DNA of 64,000 nucleotides from Octopus sinensis (Eukaryota). Below the pieces are notes generated by a model, which saw nothing but the letters and a program-made list of their open reading frames with translations, was not told where the DNA came from and did not search any database. The position numbers and the translations under genes were made by a program. Location of the stretch: NCBI RefSeq assembly GCF_006345805.1, contig NC_042998.1, positions 61,566,001 to 61,630,000 on the forward strand, read 5' to 3'. Position 1 is the first letter of the stretch; the number at the start of each line of letters is the position of its first letter. This document shows positions 3,005 through 60,208 of this stretch, one piece after another.

Positions 3005-3040
3005 GTTTCTGAAGAAGAGCGTCTGTTCGAAACGTTAAAC
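3005..3040 (+). ncRNA. Minimal type-I hammerhead ribozyme motif
   Basis: gttt-CTGAAGA-a-gagc(gtct)gttc-GAAA-cgtt-aaac: stem I gttt/aaac, stem II gagc/gttc, palindromic ACGT stem III, GUU triplet. Confidence 0.6.
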
Positions 3041-3106
3041 CATCTTTCTTTCCTTCCCTGAGCGTCTGCTAATACATCACTTGTAACCGTACTCGCGTTG
3101 TTGTGT

Positions 3107-3220
3107 TTTTTGTGTTTGTTCTTTTTTTTATTTTGGGATTAATATATATATATATTATATATATATATATATATATCTATATAATCCAAAAATAAAAAAA
3201 GAGAACAAACAAACACAAAA
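3107..3220. repeat. Inverted repeat around a (TA)n core
   Basis: ttttgtgtttgttc...ttttgggatta versus taatccaaaaataaaaaaagagaacaaacaaacacaaaa. Confidence 0.65.
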
Positions 3221-3883
3221 TATATATATATGTATACTAAACGGTTGGATCCGGTGTTGCTCATGTTTTCCGTGTTGAAGTTAAGCCCACCTCTGACCTT
3301 GTATTGAAATCGTCTATGTTCCCCTTGCCAACTAGTACTCATTAAGATGTATGCCGCATTCAACTTATGGACATCAACTGTAATCACGTGTAACATATCT
3401 TGAAAATCGATAGAATAGTCTCTGAAAAAAGCTGACTCACTCTTGTTGCCTTCTAATTCCTCTGGAATTAAGTTAAAACCTTTGCCATCTCCCTTACCTC
3501 AAAATTTACCAAAATTTCAAATTTCATTAAAATCAGATGAAGAATATAACATTTACAGTCAAAAATAAAATCCTCGTGGTTATTTGCATGCAAAAGGCCT
3601 ATTGATTTTATAAAGCCACTGCTCATGCGTAATTATCAACTTTTTGTAAATGCTATATACTGACATCAACTCACTGCCATGTGCCTCACTCACTCATTGA
3701 TCTTCATAAAAATTGGACAAAAAATACAAAAGTTGCAGGAAAAATAACATCGTTATAGGAATTTCCATTCAAACGCCCGATTGAGCTCGCAAAAATCGAT
3801 GCCACATGAGCATTATCGAGCTTTTGAAAAATTCTGGCTTATTTGAACTTCAGGGCTTAGATCTACCTTGCCACAAAATCATT

Positions 3884-3983
3884 NNNNNNNNNNNNNNNNN
3901 NNNNNNNNNNNNNNNNNNNNNNNNNNNNNNNNNNNNNNNNNNNNNNNNNNNNNNNNNNNNNNNNNNNNNNNNNNNNNNNNNNN
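3884..3983. other. Assembly gap (100 N)
   Basis: Run of N. Confidence 1.
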
Positions 3984-3984
3984 G

Positions 3985-4730
3985 GTGATGGACCTGGCCT
4001 ATGCAGATGCATTGCGCTCTGGGGCTCTAACCGGGCAGATGTCCAAGATACTCTCGAAAGAGTGCATGCTGCGGCGGCAGCTGTTGGTCTTCGGATCAAT
4101 GCTGGCAAAACTAAAGTGATGACGTCTCTGGTCGCAGCAGAGGAATGGCGGCCAATCGTTCTTGAGGGCATGGAGCTGGAGGATGTGGAGTCCTTCGTCT
4201 ACCTGGGTCCAACAGTGGTTCCAACGGACCAGGGCGCAGCCGAGGTCGAGCATCGCATAGATGTTGCCAGGTCTGCATTCGTGCGCCTCCAGCAGTGCCT
4301 GTGGGACAGAAGAGAGATCTTCTTGGTGACCAAAGGGCGAATCTAGCAGGTTGTCATTCGTACTATCCTCCTCTATGGTTGTGAAACATGGCCTATAAGG
4401 GTCGCCGATTAGCAATGGCTGGAGGTGTTCGACAATGACTGTCTCCGCTGCATTCTTCACTGCCGACGCATTGATCGGGTTCCTACAGCCGGTCTTCATC
4501 ACCTCCTGAATCTCCGGCCTCTCCCTTTGGTGCTTTTACAATGGTACTTAAGGTGGTTCAGTCATGCGGCCCGGCGTCCAGAGGATGAGCTGATTCGCGA
4601 TGTCCTCTTCCCACCTCCACTTCCCAGCTGGCGCAAATGCACAGGCGGACAGTTGAAAACCTGGGCAACGATGATAAAGGAGGACCTCTCCGAATTATCA
4701 GGTCGGCAGGTGGTCGGTCTGCGCAGATGG
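3985..4730 (+). mobile_element. RTE-clade LINE RT C-terminal fragment (decayed)
   Basis: DLAYAD, GLRINAGKTKVM, VESFVYLG, LLYGCETWP, LRWFSHAARR motifs with stops and frameshifts. Confidence 0.85.
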
Positions 4731-4965
4731 AACCTTGTAGCAGTTGACTATGGTGCTGCTTCGCCAGTCATTGAGTATGACTCCATTATGAACTACCCGG
4801 TTTACAATGTGGGTGGCGCGGCCATAGCCTACACTACCAGAGGCTTTAAGCATCTCAACAGTGATTCCGGATGGGCCAGGGGCTTTTCCTGGCTTCATAC
4901 CCTTAATTGCTTTATCTACTAGGGAGCTGTCTATTGGGATAGCTGGTCCCTCAACTGGGTCGACA
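4731..4965 (-). mobile_element. RTE LINE fragment
   Basis: VDPVEGPAIPIDSSLVDKAIKGMKPGKAPGPSGIT, homologous to 34880-35100. Confidence 0.85.
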
Positions 4966-4975
4966 TATATATACA

Positions 4976-5184
4976 TGTGAAGTATACTTGCCATCTCACT
5001 ATGGCTAACCACTAAGGGTGGGTGTTACTGTAGCCCCAGGAGAACATCGTCTCCAGCTGGCTTTAGGCACACTTTATGTGCCCTTATGGTATTTGCAAAG
5101 GGAGGTCACCCTTCCCTCATCAACCTAAGGGATATGCACGGACTGTAGTTTCTAGGTTTTCACCTGTCATCAGCGTACGACAAT
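4976..5184 (-). mobile_element. Hammerhead-bearing non-autonomous element (Penelope pLTR/retrozyme-like)
   Basis: Related to 22750-22930 and, more loosely, 1335-1452; starts with a hammerhead on the minus strand. Confidence 0.55.
5136..5178 (-). ncRNA. Type-I hammerhead ribozyme, GUC site
   Basis: Minus strand gtacg-CTGATGA-cagg(tgaaaa)ccta-GAAA-ctacaGTC-cgtgc: 5-bp stem I, stem II with one C-A mismatch, stem III ACT/AGT. Confidence 0.75.
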
Positions 5185-5447
5185 CACCGGTTTTCGATTA
5201 ATTCTTTATTACGATTATAAAATCAGTACATAGAAGAACAATACAGGACATACATACAAAAAAACAGTTAAGTGGTTCGTTTAAAATTTCCACAATATAT
5301 GGATTATTCATTATACAAAAACTGTATTTAAATTGTCCTTTGCATTGACTAATATAACATTACATTGATTGAAATCTTACCGATATATTTTAAACCCCGG
5401 CAACCTATAAGGCCCCGCAGCTTTCCTTTCCTCTTCTACATCCATAG

Positions 5448-8400
5448 TTAAACTGGGTTTCTGACACCCACCTTTTTCGCAACTTCCTTCCATCTTTTTT
5501 CATACACACCTCGTGGTAAGGTCTTCTTTTCCAGCCCCATTTTGCTCTTCAGATGATATCTGAAGTAAGTGAGCAAGTCGGGGCCTGAGACAAAGGATCC
5601 TATTGCAACTCCTTCCATTCTTGTACGCCACATGCATTCTTTTACTACTGCAACCGTGCAGTGAAAACATGCCTCACCTTCCTTCGAGAGTCCAGTTGGC
5701 GGTATCATCTTAATCATAGACTCAGCCGACAGCTGTACTCGTCCCAGATGCGATAACACGTGTTCTGCGTAACTTATCAAGTCTGACAACTGCCAACAGT
5801 GTACAAAAGCGTGCTGGACGGTTCATCGTCCAACCCGCATCTTGGACATGTCGGTGGCACTGAAATTCCGTGCCGCGATAACTTCTCCGAACAGGTAAAG
5901 CATTCCTATAACACTGCCAGGCCAGGGATCTTTGGAAATTATCCAATACCCCCGTCCTGAAAGTCTTTTTAAACAGGACGTCGTCGTTCTTTGCCTCTAC
6001 CAGCCTGCTATAAAATACCGAGGTGGTATTTCCGCAGCCGCCTGGCCCGCCTTGTCGATCAGCGTGAGTGCCTGTCGGCACTCCTTTTGCCATAAAGTCA
6101 GATTCCGTCTTTTGATGCAACCGGTTTTAAATTCACTAAGGAAGCCGGTCCTCGGGAAAAATTCCCCTGCCAGCGGACTCCACATCTTATCACCTTCCAG
6201 GTGGTGCCAGAGATGCTTCAGCCTCAACGCATGTCTGCGCATCATCAACCAAGGCATTCCTAACCCACCCTTTAAACGGTTCCTGGCAGCAAACGGAGCG
6301 CCTCACAATGGCTTTCCTTCCTCCCTTCCACAAAAGCGGAAAAGGATTCGCTCCAACTTGCTAAGCCATGAATCGGGGCAAGGGACAACGGTCAGCGGTG
6401 AGTGATTACAGATGCAATAAACATCTGTACCACCTCCGCCCTTCCTTTCAAGGACAGAAACCTTCCGGACCAGGTCCGTACTATGTCCTCCACCTTTCCC
6501 GTCACCTCACTCCAATTCCTCTCCGTTTGGGAGTCTGGCCCAAACCAAACTCCTAGCAACTTAAAGGACCATCTGTCCAGTGTCCCACGGCACTGGACGA
6601 TATCGACTTGCTCCTCCAGGTGCCGAGGCGTAAGCCAATCGACTTGTCCTTGTTAACTTTTGCTCCTGCCACCGCCTCGTATCCTCTGATAGCATCTTCT
6701 ACACAAGGTAGCTGAGCCTCATTGGACACGATGAGGGTGACGTCATCCGCATAAGCAGAAAGTCCTCCCGCCTCCGATCTCATCCGGGTTACTTCCCAGC
6801 CTCTCCAACTTTCGCAGCAATGGCTCGAGAGCCAACATGTACAAAAGTGGTGACAAGGGGCACCCTTGACGAACTGAACATTCGATCGAAAACGGTTCCG
6901 TTAGGTAACCATTTATCTGGACGGTGGACTTGATGCCGCTATACATAGCGGAGATCCACCCGCGAATTCAGGGCCCAGTCCAGCCGCTTCGAGACCGTCG
7001 CCAGGTACTTATATGGTCTACCCTATCGAACGCTTTACTTTGTCTAAATGGACCATTACCCCGCCCTTGCCGGTTAATTTACCCACCCTATCTAAGGTGT
7101 AGCGTATAAGGTGAAGTTGTCCTGGATCGACCTGCCTGGAATTGCACATGTCTGTGCTTTCCCTACAAGTTTCTCCACGACAGTCGTCAACCTTTTTGCC
7201 AACACCTTGGCCAAAATCTTTAACTCTACATTAAGTAGAGTTATGGGCCTGTAATTACTAATGTTATCCCCCTTGCTCGGGTCTTTCTGGATTAGCGTCA
7301 CCACTCCCCGGCTTACAGAACTGGGAATTCTCCCGTTCTGCTGCCAGTTCGCGTAGACGCCTGCCAGTATTCCCTCGAACAAGTCCGGCATACTTTGATA
7401 GACCATCCAACCCCGGCGACTTCTCCCCGGCGCATCCGCCAGTACCCCCCTCTATCTCCGCGGGAGTGATCGCTCCTTCACAGCACTCCACCTCACGCCC
7501 CGAGAGCCGCGGTCCGCCGGCTAGGAAGTCCTTAAAGGCCCTCCCCCTCCAGCGAACCACCACCCGAACGCGCGGGCGAAATGCTGATGAAGAACTTTTG
7601 CATCTCCTCCTGTCCATAGATCTTGTGTCCCTGTTCGTCAGTTAAAGACTTGATTGAAGCTTTATTGCCTCTCTGACTCTCCACTCGACAGGCCCATCTG
7701 GCAACGTTAATACCTTCTCGTTTCCCTGCGCGTAGCTTAGCTCTAACTCTGCAACCTTCGTGTTTAGAGTTAAGGTGACGGTACAATACCGTCCTTGCTG
7801 CCATCACTCCGGATGCAGAGCCAGATTCCATTGCCTCGTTTAGATTCTTAACTAAATCGTCCTCTATCCTAGACCTATCTAACCTTAGCTGATTGCTAAA
7901 TCTAATGGACTCTGAACGAATGGCTCTTTTGAGGGAGTGCCACCATCTATTGTTAATGATGGTGCCACATAATGCCCTCTGTACTAACACCTTAATCCGG
8001 GTACGGAAGTCTTCACAATTCAAAATAGACTTGTTCAGCTTCCAGTACCCGGGTCCCTGTCTATGACACTTATCTAATTGCACCCTACAAGTCACAAATT
8101 TGTGATCCGTGTAAGGCACAATGTGAAACTGTGCACAACTAAACGTATCCTTATCTCTTTTCCTAACGAATATCCTATCTATATACGATCTGCGTGAGCC
8201 GTCGTTGTTACTCCACATCCACTGTGGAACGCTCGGCTCATCCAGTCGATAACGGTCTACTAGATTAAAGCTCTCTAGTAGACCCTTGAGGCTAGGGTTC
8301 CCCTTCCTATTGGTTGAGCCAACACTGTCGACCCGCGCTTCGAGGACAGCGTTAAAGTCTCCTACTAAGACTACCGTTTCCGACGTCACTAAAAAGTGCT

Positions 8401-8770
8401 CCAGATTCCGAAAAAAACCCGACTGCCTACACTCATTCGGAGCGTAGACAGCTACCAACCTGAAGGACTGTTTACTTACGTGGGTCACATCCAGAACGAC
8501 CAGCCTGCCTTCTGGGTCCAGAAAGACAGTACTTACCTACAAGTCCAAGCTCTTCCTGATAAGGACTGCCACGCCTCTTCCTCTTCCTCGGCTAGGAGAA
8601 ATAAATTTCTCGAAAACATTTAGAAGAGGCGAGAACGCTTGGGCCCCGTTCATCTTGGACTCGGTTACAATAGCTACGTCCACTCCGTGTGTCGTGAGGT
8701 CGTTCAGGAGACAAATTTGTTTCCATTTCGACCCCATTCCACGCACATTCACACAACCCAGCTTTGCCAT
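5448..8770 (-). pseudogene. ORF2 (APE endonuclease + reverse transcriptase), frameshifted
   Basis: MAKLGCVNVRG, VYAPN, VGDFNA, YIDRIF, YTDHK, KSPGLDGL, NYRPITLLN, VRQGCPLSPLLY, AYADDVT across ORF-track fragments. Confidence 0.9.
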
Positions 8771-8819
8771 TGTCGGAGAGAAAGAGAAAAAAAATAAACT
8801 TACGGTTGGGACAGGAGCA

Positions 8820-10237
8820 TGACAGTTTAAATCTGCATGCTTCCCCTCTTCCTCCCTTGTGGTCGTAGCTGCAGGGCTCTTAACCGGCGTTGCCATCGGG
8901 CTCTGGGTAGGTGTGGTTGCCGGGGTTATAGTAAGTTTGCCCTCCAGTATTTCGTTAGTTACGTCTCTGATAAGGTTATTTTTTTAAATGTTCTTGGAGT
9001 GTTTTTTCCTTCCACTCGTCTTCCTTTATTTTTGCAAAACGAGTGGTCGACTTAGTGTCTTCAGACTTACTGTATAATTTCAATTTTGAAAATTTTAAAT
9101 ATTTAAACACTCTATCGTTCCTCTCGTCGAATGCTACAATCTTTTCATTTTTTTTAATCAATTTTTTCCAATCTTGTTTTATGGGGAGGGGCTTGGCGAA
9201 CTGTGTTCTAATGAATACAGTGCCGTGGGGGTAGGGCTGGGGAATTTGTTTTGTATGTATCTCTGCGGTGTTTGCTGATTTTTTCTTTTTGTTTGGGAGG
9301 GGAGTCCAGGGTATTTTCTTTTTTTCTTTTGTGTGTCACCTGTGTAAATTTCATTTGTTCATTTTTTCTTCCGTTTCGATTCCCTTCCTTGTCGCAGTCT
9401 TGGGGTCTTTTTCCGCCTTTTCTTTTTCTGTGTTTGAAGCACTTTGAGGAGGGGCTTCGCTGTTTTTCTTTTTTTTATGCAGTTCGAGCGGACGTGACCC
9501 TTTTCACCACATTTGAAACACCTAGGTCTGCGCCCCTCCACTGACACTCTCATTGTAATTCCCTCCTCATAAATACCCTATCGGGTAAGTTTTCTAGCAC
9601 ATTATTTTCTGCTTGAACGAGGAGTTCGAGCGCTTGTCCCTTCCAGTTTACCTCCTCTTTCCTTTTCATCATCAGAATTGAGACTTTCTGCTCTACGTAC
9701 GTGCAGAACCGCCGCTGCTGCTACCCACATTATATCATATCCTCTTGGAATGTCTTCCACATATAGTTTTGCAGTTCTTTTGCCCATATAGGTAGGTAGT
9801 AACATGATGTCCTCACTTTTTAAGGTCATCGATGAAATCTCTCTTGCCACATCAGCCGAGTCGAAATGTGCTTCAACGGTAGCGCTGCGGGGCACCTCGA
9901 CCGACGTAGCGAATTTTGTTCCACACCGGGGACAAGCACTTCTCTACTATTTCGTTCTTCCGTCCATTATTTTTTCTCTTTGTTACTGTAAACCTTGTAC
10001 ACGACTGTCTTGGCCTTTATTTCCTGTAATATCGCTCGCGGCGGTACCAGTTTTATTTCGTTGCCTTCCTTTTTGACCAAGTTCCGGTATTCGAACAACT
10101 GTTCTATTTTGAATTCCACTTCCGTTACGGTTCCCCGCCCACTGCGCCGAAAAAGACTGTTTTCTAACTTCGATATCCTTCTGTTCGCCTTTTCCCATCA
10201 CGGGAAAGTCGCTCCTCGACGCCAAGTCGAACTCCAT
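8820..10237 (-). pseudogene. ORF1 gag-like protein with CCHC zinc knuckle, frameshifted
   Basis: RPRCFKCGEKGHVRSNC in the 9359-9553 fragment; lies upstream of ORF2. Confidence 0.8.
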
Positions 10238-10490
10238 TTCTCAATTATGAGAACCAATTTTTTCAATAAAAAAAAAAAAAAAAATTACCCCGAAGGTAAT
10301 AACAATGTTTATACACAGAATTTTCAGCCCCGTTGGGCGAAAATTACTGTCACACAACAGACAACTGTTCAATTCACGAGCAAACACAAACAACGACGAA
10401 CAAAAAACGAACTCACTCAACAAAATAGGCAGCTAACTTCTCAATACGCAGATGAAAGAGGGGTCCCTAGACGAGTCAAAACACCGGTTT

Positions 10491-13400
10491 ACGATGAATT
10501 TATCTTTATTATGATCAAGTGATCTAACATAGAATTGGGACATTACAGGACAAAACAATTACAAAAATGCTATGCGAGTTCGAATGAAATTATAAAAATT
10601 ACAAAAATAAAATTTTATGTCACTTGAACGAAAACTTGCTTACTTGCCTTGAAACGAAACCTTGGCTTACTTTTGCCTTTATCACGAGAACTTTTAGTGC
10701 GTATGTTTCTTTTTTTATTATTAATTCTTTATTTTAAACAGTTATGTACAGTGAAGGGAATGGGAGGTACCAGTTTCAATTTTGAACCCGGCAGCCTATA
10801 AATCCCAGCAGCTGATTTCCCTTTTCCTCGTGATTAAGCCGGTTACTCCTCACCCACCTTTCTCATCACATCCTTCCAACGTTCCATATACTCTTTCTGT
10901 GGCAGGCTCCTCTTCTCCAACCCCTTCTCGCTCTCAGATGATATCCGAAGTATTTTAACAAACCGGGGCTAGAGATAAAGGACCCTTTCACTAGACGTTC
11001 CAATCTAGTCTCCATACACACTCTTTCAATACTGCCACCGTACAGTAAAAACAAGCCTTACCTTCCTTTGAGAGTCCAGTTGGCGGTATCATCTTAATCA
11101 TAGATCCAGCCGACAGCTGTACTCGTCCCAGATGCGACAACACGTGTTCCACGTAACTTATCAAGCCTGGCAGCTCCCGACATTGTACAAAAGCGTGTTG
11201 ACGGTTTCATCGTCCAACCCACATCTTGGACACGTCGGTGGCACTGACATTCCGTGCCTGGATAACTCCTCGCGAACAGGTATGCATTCCTATAGCACTG
11301 CCAGGTCAGGGATTTTTGGTAATTATCCAAATACCCCGACCTGAAAGTCTTCTTAAACAGGTTGGAGAGTTGATCCTCATCGAACCCCAGAGTCCTTCCT
11401 AGGACGTCGTCATTTTTTCCCTCTACCAGCCCTTTATAGAACACCGAGGTGGTATTCCCGCTGCCGGCCTTGCCCATCTTGTGGATCAGACAGAATGCCT
11501 GTCGGCACTCCTTCTGCCATGAAGTCAGGTTACGTCCTTTAATGAGACCGGGTGTAAATCCCTCCATAGAGGCCGGTCGCGGGAAGAATTCCTCTGCCAG
11601 CGAACTCCACACCTTATCATCCTCCAGGTAACACCAGAGGTGTCTCAGCATCAACGCATGCTTGCGCATCATTAGCCAAGGCATCCCCAGTCCACCCTTT
11701 AGCGGTTCCTGGCAACACACGGAGCGTCTCACAAGTGGCTTTCCTCCTTTCCACAAAAAGCGGAAAAGGAGTCGTTCCAACTTGTTTAACCACGAATCGG
11801 GGCAAGGCACGACGGTCAGGCGGTAGGTGACGACAGAGGCTATAAACATCTGTGCCACCTCCACCCTCCCTTTCAAGGAAAGATTCCTTCCGGACCACTT
11901 CCGTACTATGGCATCCACCTTGCTCGTTACCTCGCTCCAATTCTTCTCCGTCTGGGAGTCTGGACCAAACCAGACTCCGAGCAATTTAACGGGACCATCC
12001 GTCCAGTGTCCAACAACACTGGACGGTACCGGCTTGTTCCTCCAGGTGCCGAGGCGCAAACCGATGGACTTGTCCCTGTTAACTTTTGCCCCTGCCACCG
12101 CTTCGTATCTATAGAGAGCACCTGCTACCCGAGGTAGCTGTGTTCCGTTGGACACGATGAGGGTGACGTCATCCGCATAGGCAGAAACAGACTTACCGCA
12201 TCCGATTTCATTAGGGTTGCCTCCCAACTTCTCCAGCTTCCGCAGCAACGGCTCAAGAGCCAAAACATACAGGAGCGGGAACAAGGGCACCCTTGACGAA
12301 CTGAACGCTTGATCGAAAACGGCTCCGTTAGGTAACCGTTTATCTGGACTGGATTGATGCCGCTGTACATAGCTGAGATCCACCCGCAGAAGCCAGGGCC
12401 CAGCCCAGCCGCTTCGAGACCGCCGCCAAGTACCGATGGTCTACCCTATCAAACGCTTACTTTGGTCTAAATGGACCAATGCCCCTCCTTTGCCGTCTAA
12501 TTTCCAGACCCTATCTATAGTGTAGCGGAGAAGGTGAAGATTATCCTGGATTGACCTGCCTGGGATTGCACATGTCTGTGCCTTCCCGACAAGTTTCTCC
12601 ACGACAGCCGTCACCTTTTTGCTAACACCTTGGCCAAAATCTTAAACTCTACATTAAGTAGAGTTATGGGCCTATAATTACTAATACTGTCCCCCTTGCT
12701 CGGGTCTTTCTTCTGGACAAGCGTCACAACTCCTCCCGACTCACAGAGCTGGAATCCTCCCATTCTGTTGCCAGTTTGCATAGACGCTTGCCAGTATGTC
12801 CCCGAACAAGTCCGGCATACAACAATAAATTCATAGGGCAGACCATCCAACCCTGGCGACTTTTCCCCGGCGCACTCGGCCATAACCCCTCTTACCTCTG
12901 CGGGAGAGATCGATCCTTCACAGCACTCCGCCTCACCTGCCGAGAGCCGAGGCCCACCAGCTAGGAAGTCCTTTAAGGTCTCCCCACGCTCGAGCGGACC
13001 ACCGCCCCCAAACAGCCGTGCGAAATGCTGGTGAAGGACCTTCTGCATCTCCTCCTGTCCATAGATCTTGCGGTCCTGCTCGTCATTTAAGGACATAATA
13101 CAGGACTTTTTGCCCTTTTGACTCTCCGCACGACGGGCCCATCCGGCAACGTTAATACCTTCTCGTTTTCCTGCACGTAACTTAGCTCTGACTCTACACC
13201 CCTCGTGCTTGGCGTTGAGGTGACGGTACAATACCGCTCTCGCTGCCAACACTCCGGATGCACAGCCAGATTCCATAGCCTCGTCTAAGTTCTTAACTAA
13301 TTCGCCCTCTATTCTAGTCCTATCTAAACTTAGCTGCTTGCTAAATCAAATGGACTCCAAACGGATGGCTCTTTTGAGGGCGAGCCACCATCTATTATTA

Positions 13401-15374: not shown

Positions 15375-15665
15375 TATATTCTGTTGTGTCTGGGAAGAGT
15401 CATTTTCTTTTTGTGCCTTATAATGTAACACACTCACAGGTAAAATTTCCACTTTTTTTCTTATTTTTATTTTGCTCTTGAACAGGTTGCAAGATGCAAC
15501 GAAAATTTTAGGAAAATAAAAATAAGAAATAAGTGGAAATTTTACCGGTGAGTGTATTAAATTATAAGGCACAAAAAGAAAATGACTCTCCCCAGATACA
15601 ACAGAATATGCTTCAACACATGAACTCATATAAAGAATCTTGCAAACCAAATCCAAAACAGAAAT
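15375..15665. mobile_element. Fold-back (palindromic) MITE-like element
   Basis: About 95-bp arms 15375-15472 and 15514-15609; a single-arm relative lies at 20063-20220. Confidence 0.7.
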
Positions 15666-16255
15666 ATATATATATTGAGAGAGAGAGTAGTAATAATAAC
15701 AATAGTCCTTGGATGAAATTTATAAACGTTTAATGGATCGAATGCTTATAAATTCTATCCTAGGATTATTGTTATTGGTATTGTATTTATCCTACATTAT
15801 ATCGGTACAATTTCAGGCAACCCCCTAAAACTGGTTCACCAGTCAGTATCATTAGACTGAGGCAGGCATAATGGGATGAGAGCTTTATTTGCATATTCAA
15901 AATGTTTCCCATTAACAAATTTAAAAGATATATATAGAGATAGAGATTTATAATAGTATAAAATACAATTATAATTAAGGGCAGAGAAGAGACCATGCCT
16001 ATGCTGAATATAGATGCTAAATCGTGAAACCACTTAAAATTATCACTTTTATATTATACATGTGTTGAAATCATGAGAGTAAGTTCACAGAATTTCATAA
16101 AATGATTAGCCTTGGCTTGATCAATTTCTGGATTAGTCTAATAATTTTTCCTCATCAGCCAGGTATACTAAGGGAAATAAATGAGATACTTATACATACC
16201 CACAGGAAAGCAAACGCAAAGCTACGATTACATACAAATACTACAAATTTGTCCG

Positions 16256-19586: not shown

Positions 19587-19811
19587 TATTTGGTTGGTGC
19601 ATAATTATTGCGGCTTTTTTTCAATGAATTTTATTCAACAAAGACAATTACAACATTTAACAAAATCATCTTTAAATCATTATTCTGAAGCATATTCACC
19701 ATCTACTTCAATTTCTGCTTGGTGTTTTGTTTAAATTGGCGTTTTGTTTAAATTTTTTGTTGAATAAAATTTATCGAGAAAAAGCCGTAATAATTATGTA
19801 CCAACCTAATA
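19587..19811. mobile_element. Mariner-derived MITE
   Basis: TIRs ggttggtgcataattattgcggcttttt / aaaaagccgtaataattatgtaccaacc with TA flanks; internal transposase C-terminus IEVDGEYASE on the minus strand. Confidence 0.85.
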
Positions 19812-19984
19812 TAATTAAGTATTGTGACTCTCTGCATGTGTGGTTGTGATTTCTTTTTCTAGTCAAAAACTGCAGAGTTGAGTATAAAAACATTAATAGA
19901 AATAATACTTTGAAATGGAAGAGACATTATCCCCATATATATTGGCGCTACAATTATCATGATGTAGGCTTGAACATTCTGAAA

Positions 19985-20394
19985 CAGTGGCTCTCGACTG
20001 GGGTCTATATCACTCTAGTGGGTCTATATAAGATTTTGTTGTTAAAGTTTATCAACCATAAATTTTGTTGTGTCAGGGGAGAGTCATTTTCTTTTTGTGC
20101 CTTATAATTTAATACACTCACCTGTAAAATGTCCACTTATTTCTTATTTTTATTTTTCTAAAATTTTCGTTGTGTCGAACTCACATAAAGAATCTTGCAA
20201 ACCAAATCCAAAAACGAAATACCACAAATTTGTTATACTTCTACAATTCACAAAATATTTTGACAATTTTTATACAATTCCTAATAATATTTAATGGCAA
20301 AAATACAATAAGTTTTTTTTTTTTAAAGATCGAATGGCTACGAGTAAAACAAGAATAAAATGGGTTCATAGATGAAAAATGGTTGAGAACTACT
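19985..20394. mobile_element. hAT(Charlie)-like MITE with nested insertion at about 20063-20220
   Basis: Ends cagtggctctcgac / gttgagaactact; uninterrupted relative at about 58250-58490. Confidence 0.6.
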
Positions 20395-22700: not shown

Positions 22701-22749
22701 TCCAGTTCATGGCTAGAGCTTATGATTATTATTATTATAATTATTATTG

Positions 22750-23015
22750 TGAAGTATATTTTCCACTTAAATGTGGCTAATCCTTAAGGGTGGATGCTAC
22801 TGTTGCTTGTAGCCCCAGGAAGACACCTCCAGCTGGCTATTGACACACTTTCTGTGCCCTATCAGTATTTACAAAGGGAAGCCATCCTTCCCATCTCCAA
22901 CCTGACGTGATACATATGGACCCAAGTTTCTGGAGGAGGTGTCTTCTGGGGGCTACAAGCAACAGTAGCATCTACCCTTAAGGGTTAGCCACATTCAAGT
23001 GGCAAATATACTTCA
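22750..23015. mobile_element. Fold-back copy of the hammerhead-bearing element
   Basis: Arms 22750-22832 and 22931-23015; the inversion starts right after ggacccaagtttc (minus-strand GAAAC..GTC, the 3' half of a hammerhead). Confidence 0.7.
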
Positions 23016-23067
23016 TGATATTGTGCAGCTACTGTTTATATCTCGCTCAGAGATTTATTGTTGATTA

Positions 23068-24009: not shown

Positions 24010-24262
24010 CAGACATTTAAACTGATAGTGCTTTACTAAGGCTGTGAGCAGTACTTAGCAGCATTATCTTTTGGATTTCTCTGAGACATGGTTCTCCTGG
24101 GATATTATCTAGATGTTTCAGACATCCATTGCTTATCATACCCAGGACACCCACAATAACAAGAAAAGTTCTCACTTTAAGATGCCACATCTTTTCTATT
24201 TCAATTTTCAGGTCCTTATATTTACTTAATTTGTCAAATTCCTTTACAGAAATAATTCTTAC
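24010..24262 (-). mobile_element. Dong/R4 LINE 3' terminal fragment
   Basis: KLSKYKDLKIEIEKMWHLKV..VIVGVLG..EIQKIMLLSTAHSL. Confidence 0.8.
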
Positions 24263-26193: not shown

Positions 26194-26439
26194 ATTATTA
26201 AAATTTGAGGGAATAAAATCTAAAAGGAAAAAAAATTCAATTTAGAAATACTAAATCAAATTTCACACTATATAATATATACATAAAAAATTAGAAAAAG
26301 AAAAACCTTTTATCAATTCAAAATGAACAATTAAATTACACTAAATAGAAATATTAACATTAAAATAACAATAAAATGTCAAATATTAAGTAAATTGCAA
26401 AAAAAATAATAATAATATTAACGTATATAAATTGTAGAA

Positions 26440-26526
26440 TAACGACACGTGTTTCGTGGCTATATTTAAGAAATGATTATAGTGGTAGAGAAATCACTTC
26501 GATATAAATAGTCACTCATCAGGTTA
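26440..26526 (-). ncRNA. Type-I hammerhead ribozyme with long stem II, GUC site
   Basis: Minus strand taac-CTGATGA-gtgactattta...atatagccac-GAAA-cacgtGTC-gtta; stem III is the palindrome ACACGTGT. Confidence 0.8.
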
Positions 26527-26538
26527 AAAATAATATAT

Positions 26539-30799: not shown

Positions 30800-30802
<3 letters not shown>

Positions 30803-30970
30803 GAAACTGGTATGCTTTTGAATCTCTTTAACAATTCACAATAATGACTTTTATTACTTTTATTCCTACTTCAGTTCATCTAATTGTATATATCTATTGT
30901 TACTTTTCATAAAAAGCCTTTACTTTTTTTGATTTCCAATGTGCATTTTTGCTTATTTTTCTTCTTACTT
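30800..30970 (+). mobile_element. AT-rich element starting at a hammerhead 3' half; inverted sister copy at 38734-38922
   Basis: acgaaactggtatgctttt...cttcttac is the reverse complement of 38734-38901. Confidence 0.75.
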
Positions 30971-34190: not shown

Positions 34191-34367
34191 GTTTATATAT
34201 TTGTTTTGCAAGATTTTTGATGTGAAATCGTGTGTTGAAACAGATATTGTTGTATTTAGGAATGGTCATTTTGCCAGTTTAGTCAATAAAAACACATGCA
34301 CTTTATATTTGGTGCTACTTTGCTTCAGCATTATTCATTTTTTACATTAATCTTAATCTTATTTCAG

Positions 34368-34407
34368 CCAGAGTTCTTTCGTCACACTCCTGTGACCTCA
34401 TCATTGG
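34368..34407 (-). ncRNA. Degenerate hammerhead motif
   Basis: cca-aTGATGA-g-gtcac(aggagt)gtgac-GAAA-gaacTC-tgg; C3 mutated to A. Confidence 0.45.
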
Positions 34408-34494
34408 TCCTTTGCTTTCTTCTTTCTTATTTGTGTGTCTCTCCTTACTAACAGTCAATAATCTATATATTATGGTGCAAAATCCCCTCTCGAC

Positions 34495-50366: not shown

Positions 50367-50777
50367 ATGTTAAAGAGATTAGTCAGTGCTGACTAATATC
50401 ATACTTCAATGTTGATGGGAAGGTTTATATAGTGTGTTTGAAAGGTTAAACAATAAAAGCACAATTCACAAATTATGTAAACTTCTTTCTAAAAGGTTTG
50501 CGGAATTCTGCAATGGGAAATTGACCCCTAGATATTAGCTAACTCTAACCAGATGACATCAACATATCCCTTGTTCTTTTTACACCATTGAATGGACTGC
50601 TAAACCCTCAGTACAAGCTCAATGCTTCCTAAAATTTCAAGAACCCCAGTTTTTTATATAGATGTATCAACAAACCTGTTCTTCACAATAATATCTTTCA
50701 TCCTTCATTCTAATTCAAAACCTTCCCACCAATGTTGAAGTGTTGCATTAGTTGGTACTGACTAATCTCTTTAACAT
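50367..50777. mobile_element. Fold-back element, possibly a Penelope RT relic
   Basis: About 60-bp inverted arms (atgttaaagagattagtcagt...gggaaggttt / aaaccttccc...ctaatctctttaacat); the arm encodes YFNVDGKVY, resembling a PLE RT motif. Confidence 0.5.
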
Positions 50778-52204: not shown

Positions 52205-52911
52205 GTTGTTATTTTCTTTCTTCTTTCTTCAAATTTTCTTCCATTTCTCGCCGAGTGTTTTCCGTACAAATAGGGCAGAGAAGCTCATTGTATGCATTCC
52301 CAGATTATACATGCAAATTCACAGGTAAAATATGTAATTAAAAAAATTCATAAATAAATAAATTCATGAATGCTCTTCTCAGTACATGAGTTGTTCCAGT
52401 TAACACAATTTTTTGCACTTCCTGTAGGGATAGTAAGCCTGGTATCATTTTCAAATAGGTTTCAGTACCTTTTTTTATCATTCCTAGAGATCCTACAATC
52501 ACTGCTTCTGTAGTTGCCTTGAGATGCCACATTTTTTCAATTTCTATTAGCAAGTCTTTATATTTACTGATCTTGTCAAATTTTTTTTGCTGCTATATTG
52601 TGATTGCAAGGAATACTCATGTCAATTAATAAACACACCTTTTTTGTCTGATCTTTTATAATATATGGTTTATTGGCTTTTATAGCTTTGTCGGTATGTA
52701 TAGGCAAACCCCAGAGAATTGACACATTTTCTCCCTCAGTTACAGCTTCAGGATGGTGTTTATACCATTTGTCAGCAATTTTGATTTTATAATGCCAACA
52801 TATTGTATAGTGTAAATACTGGCCAACTCTATCATGTATTGCTTTATATTCTACAGGTGCTAAGACTCTACAATCTGAGATTAGGTGATCCATAATTTCA
52901 ATCTTATTATT

Positions 52912-52943
<32 letters not shown>

Positions 52944-53222
52944 TATCATTATTCAGTAGTCTTATTTTTATAACGTGCTTTCACTTCATTACTGAACACA
53001 GCTCTGTGTGCCTTGGGTATGTGCTGTAGTTTGCTGTGATGCTCTTATTGTTACTGTATTGAAAGTGTTTTATGTAGGATGTGTGCAGTGCCTAGTAGTG
53101 CTATTTTCTGTATGTTATATTTGTTAGTCCTGGTGTTTTTATTATGTATTTGTCTGAATATTTTTAATGCACCTACTACAATAGAAATTGTTTGTTTTTA
53201 GACTCCACATATATTATTATTA

Positions 53223-53301
<79 letters not shown>

Positions 53302-54542
53302 CATCATCATCATTGCACACTTATCAAGTCTAAATTACATCCTGATGTCATCACTTAACTGTTTAACAATTGCTATTAAGCCCTGTAGTTGTTGGCCATT
53401 TTTTGTAAAGAGCTTTAATCATCCATGTAAAAGAGATGATTTATATTTTTATGAAACATTTTATAGCTATATTGTACATCATTGAGCAATTTCAAAAGTG
53501 TTAGTAAGGCTAGACAAAATAGGATTGGTGATAGAGAGCCACCCTGGAAAAGGCCACATGAAATTCTTACATCACCAGCATTAAGAGATTCATTGTCAGT
53601 GTTCAAAGTCAGTGTGGTTCTCCATGATCCCATACCTACGAATAACAGGTTTCACAGAGTAGGTGCTATTTTATAAATTCCCAAAAACATTTTATAATTG
53701 TCAATGTGATAGACAATCAAAAGCTTTTTTATAGTCTGATGAGGCTATCGACAAGTTCTTGTGTTCTTTGTAACAATCTTCCAAGATCATCTTATTGATG
53801 AGTAACTGATCATTACAATTATAGGACCCATGTTTACATCCTTTTTGCTCATTGGGAAAGATGCCACTTTCTATTAAAAAACTATAGGTGTATTCAATCA
53901 AGATGAATGTTAGTATTTTATACATTGTTGTTAAGCAGGTTATGGGTCTATAATTTCATGGTTCATTTGTTTCTTCATTTTTGGAAGTAGAAATGCAACA
54001 CCATTAACTAGCCAAGAGGGAATCATACTAGGTTGTTGCAAAACATTGTTGTAAAGTTTTGTTAGCAGTTCATGACTCTCTGGGAAGGCATTCAACCAGA
54101 AGTTAGGAATTTTATCCTTTCTTGGAGACCCTCATTTGCTTGGCTTCCTGAGAGCAGATCTTATATCTTCTACCTTGACACCCTCCCACTTTTGCTCTTC
54201 TAAGGAGTCGATAGATATTCTATCAATCCAAGGGGCCTTTTTGTTGTGCGTTTTTTCTTCTGCCCAAATTTTATTCCAAAATCCCTGCACTTCTTCTTTT
54301 GATGGGACAGACTTTACAGTAACTGGTGATTTCCCTATCTTCCTGTAAAACTTTTTGCGGTTATTTTTTAACATGTTGTTGTCCTTGAAGAACCGAGTAA
54401 GCTTTTCATACCGTACTATGCAGGCAGCTTTAGCAGATACCTTTTGCTTGATAATTTGTTATTATCGTCATCATTATTATTATTATTATCATTTTCATTT
54501 GCCTCTTCTTTCAATTGTTTCCATTTATTATTATTATTATTA

Positions 54543-55691: not shown

Positions 55692-55747
55692 TATTTAATG
55701 TAGGATAAATTTTTTTTTTCTAAAAAAATACCTTTAAAGGTTAAAAT

Positions 55748-56140
55748 TATAAACAACTTATAAATAAGGGCAAATGAAAAAATTTCTAATGCCAAATATG
55801 CTGAAATTAGACACCCTGTCCATAACCATATAATTTTTCACAATATGCACGCTACTCAAAAAAGGGTTGACAGAAATCTCTAAAAAATTCCATTATTACC
55901 ATATCGGACCGATTTCAGGGTTAGTTTGTAAGGACCCTCCCTTCATCAGTGATAAAGGGAGGGTTCTTATGAACTAACCCTGAATATGGTAATAATGGGA
56001 TTTTTTAGAGATTTCCGTCGACCTTTTTTTGAGTAGCGTGCGTATTGTGAAAAATTATATGCTTATGGACAGGGTGTCTAATTTCAGCATATTTGGCAAT
56101 AGAAATTTTTTCATTTGCCCTTATTTATAAGTTGTTTATA
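55748..56140. mobile_element. About 390-bp near-perfect palindrome with a central hammerhead
   Basis: Arms ataaacaacttataaataagggc...ccctccct and agggaggg...gcccttatttataagttgtttata. Confidence 0.9.
55902..55954 (-). ncRNA. Type-I hammerhead ribozyme, GUC site
   Basis: Minus strand tatca-CTGATGA-aggg...ccct-GAAA-tcgGTC-cgata; core intact, first stem I pair mismatched. Confidence 0.7.
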
Positions 56141-56394
56141 TATATATGTATAAAGGCGGTGAACTGGTAGAAACGTTAGCACGCCGGGCGAAATTTGTAG
56201 CCGTATTTCGTCTGTCGTTGCGTTCCGAGTTCAAATTCCGCCGAGGTCGACTTTGCCTTTCATCCTTTCGGGGTCGATAAATTAAGTACCAGTTACGCAC
56301 TGGGGTCGATGTAATCGACTTAATCCCTTTGTCTGTCCTTGTTTGTCCCCTCTGTGTTTAGCCCCTTGTGGGTAGTAGAGAAATATATATATGT

Positions 56395-56723
56395 ATATAT
56401 GGAAAAAATGTCAAGGTAGAAAATGCTAAAAAAATTTTATAAAAAACATTTCAGTACTGGTTTCTCTTGTTTACTCTTGTGGGTTTGAGGTCGAACCCAC
56501 AAGAGTAAACAAGAGAGACAGAGACAGGCAGAAACAAGGAAAATGCCCCTTGTATTTGAATACTAGGCAAATATTCTTTTAAAAATATTTTCTTTTAACT
56601 TTTCCAAAATTTAATTGTTTTCCATGCTTACAGTTGAAAAAGTCTCAATGACTGAAACTGGTAATGAAATGTTTTTATAGAATTATTTTAGCATTTTCTA
56701 CCTTGACTTTTTTATCCATATAT
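56395..56723. mobile_element. Fold-back element with about 70-bp TIR-like arms, internal 23-bp perfect hairpin and degenerate hammerhead
   Basis: Arms 56395-56464 and 56654-56723; hairpin 56463-56516; cag-tTGAAaA-agtc(tcaat)gact-GAAA-ctgGTA at 56631-56663. Confidence 0.75.
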
Positions 56724-57239
56724 AGCAACTCATGTGTTCCTTTTCATCCTTCTACATATATATATACTCTTTACTCTTTTATTTGTTTCAGTCATTTGAC
56801 TACGACCATGCTGGAGCACTACCTTTAGTCAAGCAAATCAACCCCAGGATTTATTCTTTGTAAGCCTAGTACTTATACTATCAGTCTCTTTGCCGAACCA
56901 CTAAGTTACAGGGACACAAACACACCAGCACCAGTTGTCAAGCAATGTTGGGAGGACAAACACAGACACACAAACACACACACACACATATATATATACA
57001 TATATATATATACAACGGGCTTCTTTCAGTTTCTGTCTACCAAATCCACTCACAAGGCTTTGGTCAACCCGAGGCTATAGTAGAAGACACTTGCCCAAGG
57101 TGCCATGAAGTGGGACTGAACCTGGAATCATGTGGCTGGTAAGCAAGCTACTTACCACAAAGCCACTCCTTTAAATTATTTAAATTATTTCAGCTTTAAA
57201 GCTGTGGTCTTGCTGGGGTACCACCGTTGACTGTGCTAC

Positions 57240-57660
57240 AACATTATCTGAAACCTTCTCCGATATGTGGTATTTGATGAATGAGGGAGTTTGGTGCTGC
57301 TGCCCTCATCTGTATTTCCTGCCGTGAGGTAGGGCCATCTGAAACCCTTGACAGGAGGAGATCCAGTCTTGTTTTGAAGACACCTACATCCACACCATGC
57401 AGGTCTCTCCAGCATTTTGGAAGTATATTGAAGAGCTGTGGGCCCCTGGAATCCATGCTGTTGAAGTATCTGGTCCTGTATTTTGATGGCCATGCGGGGA
57501 TATTTGGTACTATGCAGTGGTGCCCTGTTCTGCTGTTTGTGTAACTTTCAATGCCAAAGTTTGGTGCAAGGCCTTCCAGGATTTTCCAGATGTATATCAC
57601 AGCATATCTTTCTTGCCCTCATTCTAGGGAAAAGAATCTAAACTCTTTCAGTCTTTCCTA
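57240..57660 (-). mobile_element. CR1/L2-group LINE 3' fragment
   Basis: IYIWKILEGLAPN...RGPQLFNILPK...FKTRLDLLL C-terminal ORF2 signature. Confidence 0.75.
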
Positions 57661-58705
57661 TAGATATAGATATATACATACACACACACACAAACATACA
57701 CACACACACACATATATATATATTTATACATACATACATACATACATACATACAAATGATGGGATTCCACACAGTTTCTGCCTATAGAATTTACTCACAA
57801 GTCTTTGGTCAGGCTGAGGCTATAGTAGTAGGCACTTGCCCAAGGTGGAGCACAGTGGGGACTGAACCTGAAAACACAGCTTATAAAGTGAACTTTTTAA
57901 CCCCAGAACCATACCTAACAAAGAGAGTATTACGAACCTTCCTGCATTCTGACAACCACAGAGTAACGATGAAGAATTTGTGCATCCGTGACAAGAACAT
58001 TCCTCTCTTAGCCTCTTCAACATAGCCAAGGTCAACTTTGCCTTCCTTTTGAGATGGATAAAGTATCAGCATTTGACAGATACTTTATCAGTTCCAAGGA
58101 GATTACAGCCAAAATTGGCCTGGGAGAGGGAATTTGAAGTAAGAAAGAATAGATTCAGTACAACTACAACAAGGCATTTTATGCTATGCTCTAATATTTT
58201 CACTTGTTTCTTTTTATGTCCAGTTTTCAACTCTAGTATGGATTAAATAAGTGGTTTTCAACCGGGGTCCACATGACCCTTGTTAGTTCATATAAAATTT
58301 TGTTCTTAAAATTTATGTGCAGAAAATTGACCATACTTCTATTATACACAAAATGATTTAACAATGTTTTTTATGCAGTTCCTCATAATATTTGATTATG
58401 GAAATACAAGAGGATCTTTTTTAAAACACCAAATGGTTATGGGGTCCAATAGAATAAAACAAAAAACAAAGGGTTTCATAAATAAAAAAATAATTTAGAT
58501 GAATATACTGCTGAAGCATTGTTTTACAGCCAGATGCTTTTCTTGTCACTGACCCTTACTACTTTCCAAATAAGGGGTCATCGATTCCACAAATCTTTGA
58601 ATGTGAAAAGCCAGTGAATGATTTGTTGACAGGGGAAATGAAAACAACCTATAGCTCAGGGACTTTCAAAGACACCCAAATGTTAACAAATGCACAGACA
58701 TGCAC

Positions 58706-58736
<31 letters not shown>

Positions 58737-59115
58737 AACACACACACACACAAGTGTGTACACATGTATACATGTGCATACAGATGCACATGCACGTGTC
58801 ACACACCAGGCTTCTTTCAATTCCCATCTACCAAAGCCACTCACAAGGCTTTGGTCAGCCTAAGACCATAACAGAAACCCTACCAGACAAGATACTTGAC
58901 CACTGTGGGACTGAACCCAAAGCTATGTGGTTAGCAAGTTAATTGCTTAACCACCAAGCCATACTTGTGCTCCTTGTGACTCAGCCTTAGTATTACAAAT
59001 GATAAGTGCACTTACTGTCAAATACTCCAGTGTTTCTGAAATTTGGTCTTCTTTCTGTAACATAAAACAAAGAATCATGTGTTTTATCTTTCATTAGATG
59101 CATATAAATCCCTGC

Positions 59116-59597
59116 ACAAATAAACAGCACTCCTACACTTGAATTTCACCCTTACACTTAAATAGCACTGCTACACTTAAATGGCACCCCTACACATAAA
59201 TAGCACCCCTACACTTAAATAGCACCCCAACACTTAAATAACACCCTACACGTAAATAGTATCCTTACACTTAAATAGCACCCCTACACTTAAATAGCAC
59301 CCCTACACTTAAATAACACCCTACACTTAAATAGTACCCTTACACTTAAATAGTACTGCTACATATAAATGGCACACCTACACTTAAATAGCACTGATAC
59401 ACTTAAATAGAACTACTACACTTAAATAGCATTGTTACACTTAAATGGCACTCCAACACTTAAATAGCACCCCTACACTTAAATAAAACTCCTACACTTA
59501 AGTGACATGCTTGCATTTAAATAGCACCCTTACACTTAAGTAGCACTACTACACTTAAACAACACTTCTAAGCTTAAACAACACTGATACATTTAAG
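59116..59597. repeat. 19-bp minisatellite, about 25 copies (TACACTTAAATAGCACCCC)
   Basis: Direct reading; ends degenerate. Confidence 0.95.
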
Positions 59598-60162
59598 CAA
59601 GAGTCCTAGAGGCAATTCTCCTAAACCCTAAAGACAACAGTGATATCAACAGACCAGGAAAACTTTCCATATCAAGCTGCATCTTCTCTGTATTGAGAGG
59701 TCACAACCCTGGTACTATGGACTCGAAAGTCACAAGAAAGAATTACAAGATGGATTCTTCAAATTGAGTCAACTGGCAGGAGACCTAGGGGTATATGGAT
59801 ATAGATATGTATATACATATATGTATACATGTATCAAGATATATATATGGATGTATGCATCTCCCCCCACACAGAGTTAGGGGTCTTGTCATTCAAGTAA
59901 CTTAGTGACCTCACTAGTGCTGGGACCATGAAAAGCACTCAGTATAGACTCTGAAAAGTGGTTGGCATGAGGAAAGGCATCTGGCCATGGGAACTATGCC
60001 CAAGCAAACATAGACCATGGTGTTGTCCTTCAGATTCTGTCAACCCATCTAGGCATTAAATGATGATGGTTATACAGTTCTCTATTTGAGAGATGAGGAA
60101 TTATGTACATTATTTATATTATTTACATTTGATGGATATTTGTCCTTATCTTGTTTGCTTTT

Positions 60163-60208
60163 AACAAACTGTTTCAGATGATGTACTCTCTAGCTTTCAT
60201 CAGGTATC
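60163..60208 (-). ncRNA. Degenerate hammerhead motif in an interspersed repeat
   Basis: gatac-CTGATGA-aagctag...catct-GAAAC-agtttgtt; core present, stems decayed. Confidence 0.45.

Follow-up and report, generated by a model that had tools for sequence, protein, structure and literature searches.

Hammerhead ribozymes in a 64-kb octopus window most likely sit in solitary, largely broken end-stubs of Penelope-like elements

The DNA analyzed here, a 64-kb stretch of the Octopus sinensis genome referred to as the window, harbors 12 hammerhead-bearing insertions from 8–9 repeat families, corresponding to one insertion per ≈5 kb when relics are counted. All 10 sites cited in a preliminary description of this DNA are present on the strands given there, and the insertions at 15478 and 20170 and a partner arm at 56460 are newly found. 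The insertions are listed below with the evidence that places them.

2955..3140 (limits approximate), + strand: stub with a complete minimal hammerhead at 3005 (descriptor; anchored test, 0/2000; fit to the PLE consensus)
4976..5190, − strand: stub of the 22917 family with the 5136 motif (descriptor; 73% identity to 22917)
15379..15663, both strands: head-to-head fold-back between (TA)n tracts, 15478 family (fold-back; anchored test, 15/2000)
20066..20215, both strands: second insertion of the 15478 family (sequence comparison with 15478)
22748..23065, both strands: 3′ half hammerhead at 22917 with an inverted 86-nt copy on the + strand (self-comparison)
26194..26532, − strand: stub with a complete hammerhead at 26440 between two (TA)n tracts (descriptor; anchored test, 1/2000)
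30800..30970, + strand: 3′ half hammerhead of the 38883 family (94% identity to 38883)
34201..34450 (upstream limit approximate), − strand: stub with the 34368 motif (descriptor; anchored test, 2/2000)
38733..38945 (upstream limit approximate), − strand: stub with the 38883 motif (anchored test, 1/2000)
55696..56140, both strands: ≈400-nt fold-back centered on the first core base of 55902 (fold-back; predicted fold z −3.54)
56394..56754, both strands: head-to-head pair with the 56631 motif (self-comparison; related sequences)
60080..60257 (downstream limit approximate), − strand: decayed stub after (TAA)14 with the 60163 motif (related sequences)

Only four sites, or one per 16 kb, combine a complete type I hammerhead with an unaltered canonical core. 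At 3005, stem I (3005–3008), the core (3009–3015), a bulged A, a 4-bp stem II, and GAAA (3029–3032) are followed by an ACGT stem III and the cut site at 3036; this motif, which has microsatellites on either side, agrees with the PLE consensus of PMC4209133 (Fig. S3). The 5136 motif (core 5173–5167, GAAA 5152–5149, cut site 5141) has an imperfect stem II junction and an 8-nt stem III with one mispair, and that at 26440 (core 26522–26516, cut site 26444) has a 60-nt extended stem II (z −3.49) and a perfect 8-nt palindrome (duplex −10.3 kcal/mol). A 540-nt duplication at 26538–27377 excludes the 26440 motif. For the fourth, 55902 (−; core 55949–55943, GAAA 55916–55913), the motif stands as first described and its register can be improved: an 11-nt near-palindrome (duplex −13.9 kcal/mol) places U16.1 at 55903 and the cut site at 55902, with a 6-bp stem I. 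The earlier register may still apply, and the 11-nt register pairs better. The − arm of this insertion is ≈52 nt longer than the other, and in the predicted fold the inverted arm would pair with the core and mask the ribozyme.

Four further sites carry variant cores. The 15478 relic (+; core 15478–15484, U3...C8) has a 6-bp stem II, an AATT stem III, and a cut site at 15508; its long arm exceeds the other by ≈54 nt, an ORF start lies at 15582, and the z score obtained here is −2.83. The 34368 motif (core 34404–34398, A3...G8) has a 6-bp stem II and a cut site at 34371, and its tail, which carries an uninterrupted 27-codon ORF start at 34269, terminates in (TA)n. Site 38883 combines a 7-bp stem I, a core (38915–38909) with complementary A3–U8, and a short stem II (GAAA 38899–38896, cut site 38890). 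In the + arm of 56631, the core (56634–56640) reads U3–A8, followed by GAAA (56654–56657), the cut site at 56663, and a ≈30-nt tail; the − arm at 56460 is a 3′ half (GAAA 56464–56461), and a 60-nt hairpin lies at the arm junction. Other 3′ halves are found at 20170 (−; GAAA 20168–20165), joined head-to-head to 40 nt from the long end; at 22917 (−; GAAA 22930–22927, cut site 22919), where the + arm reaching ≈23065 is a possible tail; and at 30800 (GAAA 30803–30806, cut site 30812), immediately 3′ of (TA)16. Finally, 60163 retains an intact core (60203–60197), with breaks in the window copy at U16.1, in stems I and III, and in part of stem II.

The complete motifs clearly exceed the shuffled background in the comparison that the preliminary description had proposed. 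A strict descriptor, requiring a perfect core and a perfect palindrome, matches 3005 and 26440 and nothing in 40 of 40 local dinucleotide shuffles, and a medium descriptor matches 3005, 5136, 26440, and 55902 against a mean of 0.025 and a maximum of 1 in 40 shuffles. Arranged as in type I, with both stem I and stem II present, the core blocks CUGANGA, GAAA, and UH occur above chance (4 versus 0.025), and a descriptor scan in any block order recovers the type I order alone. With a rough descriptor, permuted or split-core hammerheads (SGC, CSG, GCS; PMC10085705) gave none with an intact core, and the two split-core matches are not above the ≈2.1 expected per shuffle. The degenerate motifs as a class did not hold up in blind scans, where ≤2 core mismatches gave 10 matches versus 6.8 ± 2.5 in 12 shuffles and ≤1 mismatch gave 6 versus 2.2 ± 1.4. 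In an anchored test, in which the 90 nt upstream of each site were shuffled 2000 times, 3005 (0/2000), 55902 (0), 26440 (1), 38883 (1), 34368 (2), and 15478 (15) are supported, and 60163 (79/2000), 5136 (158/2000), and 56631 (345/2000) are not; the score disallows the unpaired base before GAAA that 5136 carries.

These loose scans, the failure of 56631 and 60163 in the anchored test, and a control scan freeing core positions 6 and 8 (2 matches versus 0.10) are what would be expected if the degenerate sites were chance matches in AT-rich, repeat-dense DNA and the density were overstated. This explanation is largely refuted, and we regard it as the least probable of those weighed here: the anchored test supports 38883, 34368, and 15478, copies that keep a 5′ half are present in the window for the families of the 3′ halves, and related sequences rescue both 60163 and 56631. 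Family-level data cover three sites (55902, 56631, and 60163), and the consensus check succeeds at the latter two in four of four sequencing runs: relatives of 60163 restore the stems and cut site of the ribozyme, with U16.1 in 89–93%, the first stem I base in 86–97%, and no core change at ≥35%, and relatives of 56631 restore the palindrome (90–97%) and stem I (99%). Two stretches of the window compared with sequencing runs are many-copy, e.g. 2,726 contigs over 137 nt (run X1).

The architecture of these motifs is that of the minimal hammerhead. Of the 12 motif copies that include a G block (20170 left out, 55902 scored by the short register), 8 have a palindromic stem III that self-pairs completely (Watson–Crick or G–U); those at 5136, 34368, and 56460 have one mispair each, and stem III is broken at 60163. 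An unpaired base follows core position 9, ahead of stem II, at 3005, 5136, 34368, and 15478 and within the 60163 family; it is absent at 26440 and 38883 and, in the simplest register, at 55902 and 56631. The hammerheads of Penelope elements (PMC4209133) share this core (with the bulged base that some window copies have), the short stem I, and the palindromic stem III; they likewise fall into many families per genome, occur mostly as single copies tied to truncated elements, and include opposite-strand pairs and a U3–A8 variant, with Schistosoma family 4 identical to 56631 in all seven core letters. In contrast to that collection, the window has some palindromes of 8–11 nt, a 60-nt stem II, and an A3–U8 copy; its supplement holds no octopus example, and Lottia and Crassostrea are present.

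Positions 3 and 8 account for all seven mismatches in the cores at 56631, 38883, 15478, and 34368. A natural covariation from C3–G8 to U3–A8 is described by Perreault et al. 2011 (PMC3088659), and the core of 56631 is likely this known variant. Site 38883, a single copy, may carry the rare swapped A3–U8 pair, which our literature search did not find as a natural variant, PMC3088659 naming U3–A8 only in the portions available. That the "degenerate" cores are family-level swaps of the tertiary 3–8 pair and not decay is a tentative proposal, to which we give somewhat less than an even chance. The control matches with position 6 changed, at 41188(+) and 3558(−), are probably chance and weaken the test of positions 3 and 8. 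Were the 38883/30800 family fixed for A3–U8, it would represent an animal family of hammerheads that naturally carries the rarest Watson–Crick pair at these positions; a primer from this family gave two chance matches in metagenomes and none in viral contigs. If true, family-level 3–8 swaps would argue for selection on ribozyme catalysis among Penelope elements, a matter in doubt since cleavage is dispensable for insertion in vitro in the available account of PMC11167929.

Canonical Penelope-like elements across the animal kingdom have been reported to carry hammerheads in their terminal repeats. Judged from sequence, we consider it quite probable, and the most likely reading, that the 12 insertions are 5′-truncated stubs of terminal repeats, produced by the enzymes of Penelope-like retrotransposons. 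The stubs are 170–450 nt long, and (TA)5 or longer lies within 300 nt downstream of 8 of 12, versus 16.4% of random places (p = 1.4 × 10−4), the other four being without long (TA)n nearby. Five of the 12 insertions are head-to-head inverted pairs, and the inverted arm is absent in seven; 5 of the 10 rows of fold-backs spanning ≤1 kb fall at hammerhead sites (four loci), the head-to-head insertion at 20170 being additional. One arm exceeds the other, leaving a one-arm tail, by ≈30 nt at 56631, ≈52 nt at 55902, and ≈54 nt at 15478, and the two right ends of 20066..20215 are those of 15379–15663. It is because stub size, (TA)n, unequal head-to-head arms, and, in one lineage, an ORF start match published 5′-truncated insertions that we favor this reading. 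Inverted pLTRs, an optional tail, and an ORF start are described for Penelope-like insertions in the parts available of PMC3846280, PMC8557442, and PMC11167929, whose endonuclease-bearing elements share with the window the 5′ truncation, the head-to-head inverted copy with a one-arm tail, a terminal repeat holding the first ORF codons (seen in one window lineage), two fixed right ends, and AT-rich or (TA)n targets. The window differs from these accounts in tail length (≈30–55 nt versus a printed 30–40 nt) and in lacking an RT/GIY-YIG ORF, which is why no Penelope clade is assigned; the stubs are too short to contain such an ORF.

From published Penelope biology, a Penelope-type enzyme would nick AT-rich DNA, reverse transcription would start at one of two fixed sites 60–250 nt downstream of the ribozyme, and synthesis would usually end prematurely, so that a single arm or two arms placed back to back remain. 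Two ribozymes within the tandem transcript of the parent would pair via their palindromes and cleave as a dimer. Every stub continues across the cut site, which would imply templates of uncut or re-joined RNA. The window contains no same-strand family partner near any solitary stub that could form a dimer, and a stub on its own is predicted to lack activity in cis.

That every copy continues past the cut site, and that most tails lack an ORF, would also suit monomer fragments of noncoding retrozyme-like elements that borrow the Penelope enzyme, possibly via circular RNA, as the origin of some or most stubs; the insertion mechanism would be the same. The available part of a preprint (10.64898/2026.07.22.740005) derives animal retrozymes from Penelope terminal repeats, and in the portions available of this source and of PMC7229834, metazoan non-LTR retrozymes share with the window a type I hammerhead, a weak palindromic stem III, a mostly noncoding nature, and probable mobilization by Penelope enzymes. 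Unlike these retrozymes, as far as the available parts describe them, the window has neither tandem units nor the canonical 6-bp/4-bp architecture: it contains no tandem array and no hammerhead in a tandem unit of 170–400 nt, the 540-nt duplication leaving out the 26440 motif. The short stems and, at the sites that have it, the bulged base are minimal Penelope hammerhead traits, and one lineage has a coding tail, so that we consider such an origin unlikely. The preliminary description had named the palindromic stem III as a hallmark of the minimal hammerheads of Penelope-like elements and non-LTR retrozymes; the minimal Penelope-like type I assignment holds, and the retrozyme option fails within the window because no hammerhead sits in a tandem unit.

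The four complete canonical motifs, the two complementary 3–8 variants, and the long palindromes at 26440 and 55902, which might permit trans pairing, could instead belong to a network of self-cleaving RNAs that is active and in use by the host, either to process its transcripts or to form circles. We judge this highly improbable: four sites are 3′ halves only, 60163 lacks U16.1, the inverted arm of 55902 is predicted to mask that motif, and none of the eight cited full-length sites has a three-way hammerhead in its minimum-energy structure. Furthermore, a single Schistosoma minimal motif is uncleaved and dimers are slow (PMC4209133), and an anole element inserted without needing cleavage according to the available part of PMC11167929.

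The window hammerheads are real and, most likely being solitary, largely broken Penelope end-stubs, would represent a known and ordinary arrangement. They extend the known Penelope hammerheads to an octopus genome, where standard Rfam annotation misses them, no hammerhead being among 110 matches at E ≤ 5 in the 64-kb window. In Octopus vulgaris, 31 recently active Penelope-like families have been catalogued (PMC13282606), and the main text of that study contains neither "ribozyme" nor "hammerhead." The large, unannotated ribozyme mobilome that was first proposed is borne out in that Rfam misses the motifs and that several families are present, and not in its vigor: with copies mostly truncated, broken, or masked and no same-strand family partner nearby, the window amounts mainly to a record of fossils and does not attest an active system, and fossils make up most of the motifs counted in a census of this kind. 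Nor does each site represent a separate family, since 5136 and 22917 are 73% identical and 38883 and 30800 are 94% identical. A density near the suggested one per 7 kb is reached by the 12 insertions with relics, not by the four complete canonical motifs, and genome-wide density is not inferable from a single window. Xenopus tropicalis reportedly has roughly 9,000 hammerheads and Acropora millepora over 6,000; four complete motifs per 64 kb, if held genome-wide, would exceed the density in both, which one window cannot show.

Split by codon position, the differences between the tails of 34368 and 15478 number 4/3/13 across 26 codons (p = 0.004), which suggests that the terminal repeat of this lineage carries a codon-conserved 27-codon ORF start. 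Tails outside this lineage do not look coding, and since the ORF start is limited to one lineage, some parents may be noncoding. Pfam finds no GIY-YIG domain in 40 of the window's 95 long ORFs; the same 40 contain RT, AP endonuclease, and transposase pieces, none tied to the stubs. With a profile of the 27-codon peptide, 1,586 candidates yielded no RT protein of full length, and 11 of 12 matches to the peptide are short ORFs with likeness ending near residue 29 or earlier. No relative was found in viral contigs. The peptide corresponds to the first 26 residues of P0016, an Octopus bimaculoides model (24/26 identical), and the remainder of P0016 has a SWIM-like zinc-finger end, the family being a weak lead. 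A SWIM-protein parent was rejected and P0016 judged a chimera because, among the seven aligned relatives (of 18 other matches), six begin instead with a SAP-type segment, the seventh being a fragment.

All hammerhead motifs cited in the preliminary description are present in the window, and two further sites, at 15478 and 20170, bring the total to 12 short insertions of 170 to 450 nt that keep all or part of a minimal type I hammerhead (stubs), in a repeat-dense setting of 39% GC with 103 tandem-repeat rows and broken LINE and transposase pieces.

Hammerhead sites by window position, with groupings from self-comparison
3005 (+), canonical core
5136 (-), canonical core; groups with 22917 (73%) and with 1353-1437, a piece of tail only
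15478, imperfect core, new here
20170, new here
22917-22930, 3′ half
26440 (-), canonical core
30800, 3′ half
34368 (-), imperfect core; groups with 15478 (78% across the tail)
38883 (-), imperfect core; groups with 30800 (94%)
55902 (-), canonical core
56631 (+), imperfect core; groups with an inverted half at 56460
60163 (-), degenerate form

A strict descriptor recovers 3005 and 26440, with no match in 40 local dinucleotide shuffles, and a medium descriptor recovers these two plus 5136 and 55902, four in all against a shuffled mean of 0.025 (maximum 1). The excess over shuffled sequence stands for the four canonical cores; loose scans leave the degenerate forms within background (10 matches versus 6.8, and 6 versus 2.2; 12 shuffles each), so that each degenerate site required a separate test. 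Under 2000 shuffles confined to the 90 nt upstream of an unchanged 3′ half, 38883 (1/2000), 34368 (2/2000), and 15478 (15/2000) pass; 60163 (79/2000), 5136 (158/2000), and 56631 (345/2000) fail, and the 3′ halves (n = 3) give chance-level scores, as expected. Rfam returns no hammerhead in the window at E ≤ 5, and no permuted form was found there; we regard chance matching as a scarcely credible source of the degenerate sites.

In the four imperfect cores, all seven mismatches to CUGANGA fall at position 3 or 8, which form the tertiary base pair. With both left free, there are three matches versus 0.27, equalled in none of 30 shuffles (56631 falls under the threshold); the threshold was chosen once the sites were known, 15 position pairs were tried, and 0/30 was also returned by pairs 3/9 (34368 and, in a shifted register, 55902) and 6/8 (two unexplained matches). 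That C and G are the more mutable bases would be a further caveat. The U3-A8 variant seen at 56631 occurs naturally (PMC3088659), Schistosoma carrying about 1,300 copies (PMC4209133); the A3-U8 pair of 38883, seen in this one copy, was not found in the literature searched on natural hammerhead core variants. Hammerhead-like matches at 41188 (+) and 3558 (-) have U at position 6 and are also changed at position 8.

The stubs fall into eight or nine families, the 15478 family being represented a second time by 20170; the suggestion of several families therefore holds, although not every site has a family of its own, as 5136/22917, 38883/30800, and 34368/15478 are related. A (TA)5+ run lies within 300 nt downstream of 8 of the 12 insertions (the exceptions being 5136, 20170, 22917, and 60163) versus 16.4% of random places (p = 1.4e-4). 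Five of the 12 are arranged head to head: a 400-nt fold-back is centred on 55902, and inverted partners accompany 15478, 22917, 56631, and 20170. One arm exceeds the other by about 52 nt (55902), 30 nt (56631), and 54 nt (15478), and the short and long ends of 20170 are those of 15478. At 15468-15520, the inverted arm starts at, or fuses with, stem I, at most one base from the predicted cut site, and the self-complementary stem I may provide fold-back microhomology; at 55902 the inversion is centred on the first core base. Fold-backs in which no hammerhead is recognisable, at 19583-19815, 1084-1174, 50367-50777, and 15700-15771, are possibly MITEs or older stubs.

The features of the stubs match, one by one, published features of Penelope-like insertions, namely an inverted 5′-truncated copy with a tail (PMC8557442), a terminal repeat containing the first 12 to 22 codons (PMC3846280), and an enzyme that nicks AT-rich sites and has two internal start sites setting the tail (PMC11167929); the stubs are therefore quite probably truncated terminal-repeat ends written by Penelope-type enzymes, a class assignment based on insertion anatomy. 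The motifs also agree with Penelope-type minimal hammerheads in the sequence features tested and would be expected to work alike; they are further examples of these known hammerheads, which upholds that half of the preliminary description. Its other half, retrozymes, presupposes a tandem structure, and no window hammerhead lies inside a tandem unit, so that non-coding, retrozyme-like parents are improbable. By analogy, the ribozyme would likely serve to cut the tandem transcript of the parent as a dimer held by the palindrome (PMC4209133; PMC6765202). Every stub crosses the cut site, which would make the template uncut or re-joined RNA, in agreement with a result for an anole Penelope element (PMC11167929), although this spanning is partly ascertainment because only ribozyme-keeping stubs were counted. 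An active host network of self-cleaving RNAs is highly unlikely: four copies are halves, 60163 lacks its cut site, 55902 is predicted to be masked, and no stub in the window has a core-bearing family partner nearby on the same strand.

Family-level data come from copies inside the window and from contigs of sequencing runs aligned on two stretches. At 60163, contigs of four runs (four organisms, three studies) show 16 differences at ≥35%, none in the core or GAAA; by majority these contigs regain U16.1 (89-93%), the first pair of stem I (86-97%), another pair of that stem (92-97%), and stem II. Of contigs running through the palindrome base, only 23 to 36% have it in restored form, and the ACGT palindrome appears in the loose-end consensus at 60166 in all four runs. 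Since stems, cut-site base, and palindrome are present in related contigs, the window copy is, judged by sequence, a damaged representative of a many-copy family that is otherwise intact. Within 60158-60215, this copy departs from the contig majority at 15 of 58 ribozyme positions versus 1 of 79 flanking ones (Fisher p = 8e-6; aligner bias possible), and variation at family positions 10.1 and 11.1 is close to half frequency in each case, a pattern suggestive of G-C and A-U subfamilies. In the 56631 family, 56659 (palindrome) is C in 90 to 97% of contigs and 56664 (stem I) in 99%. Core positions 56634 and 56639 and the 55902 ribozyme interior show no difference among the 40 listed of 80; because every listed difference attains about 60% in one or more runs, we infer that the family majority probably matches the window there.

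Both the 34368 and the 15478 tail contain a stretch opening with ATG, in which the differences between them are distributed 4/3/13 over the three codon positions (p = 0.004), with eight synonymous and eight non-synonymous codons. Searched as a profile against 1.84 billion proteins, the tail peptide gave 12 matches: 11 are short ORFs with likeness ending no later than about residue 29, and the twelfth is an unrelated repeat protein. No reverse transcriptase-bearing protein was found among 1,586 candidates of the peptide profile. The peptide is identical at 24 of 26 residues to an Octopus bimaculoides model (P0016). A SWIM-like protein was rejected as parent, the apparent link having proved chimeric. 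Many O. bimaculoides "SAP domain" gene models (P0016, P0018-P0036) are instances of a SAP plus SWIM-like sequence that exists in multiple copies, and some of them are joined to unrelated segments. Among the literature matches listed, none reports octopus hammerheads, and ribozymes go unmentioned in the main text of an Octopus vulgaris repeat paper (PMC13282606); its repeat library may already contain the window families.

Among neighbouring repeats, a roughly 5-kb AP-endonuclease/RT LINE at 5182-10567 (-), which we take to be L1/Tx1-like, stops some 20 nt short of the 5136 hammerhead core and lies between direct repeats of ~90 to 110 nt, 73% alike and both ending in the same short motif; it may target the 5136 repeat. 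A second copy of this family (10779-14351 (-), 81% identical over 3.6 kb) lies head to tail just upstream. A restriction-endonuclease-type LINE, presumably Dong/R4-like, has left broken RT and zinc-finger pieces beside (TAA)n at 41264-43066 (-), 52576-54458 (-), and 24017-24352 (-). Tandem arrays include a minisatellite at 59121-59596 (19-nt unit, 25 copies), a near-perfect 540-nt duplication at 26538-27377, possibly an assembly artefact, and a tandem pair of 206 nt at 49981-50364.
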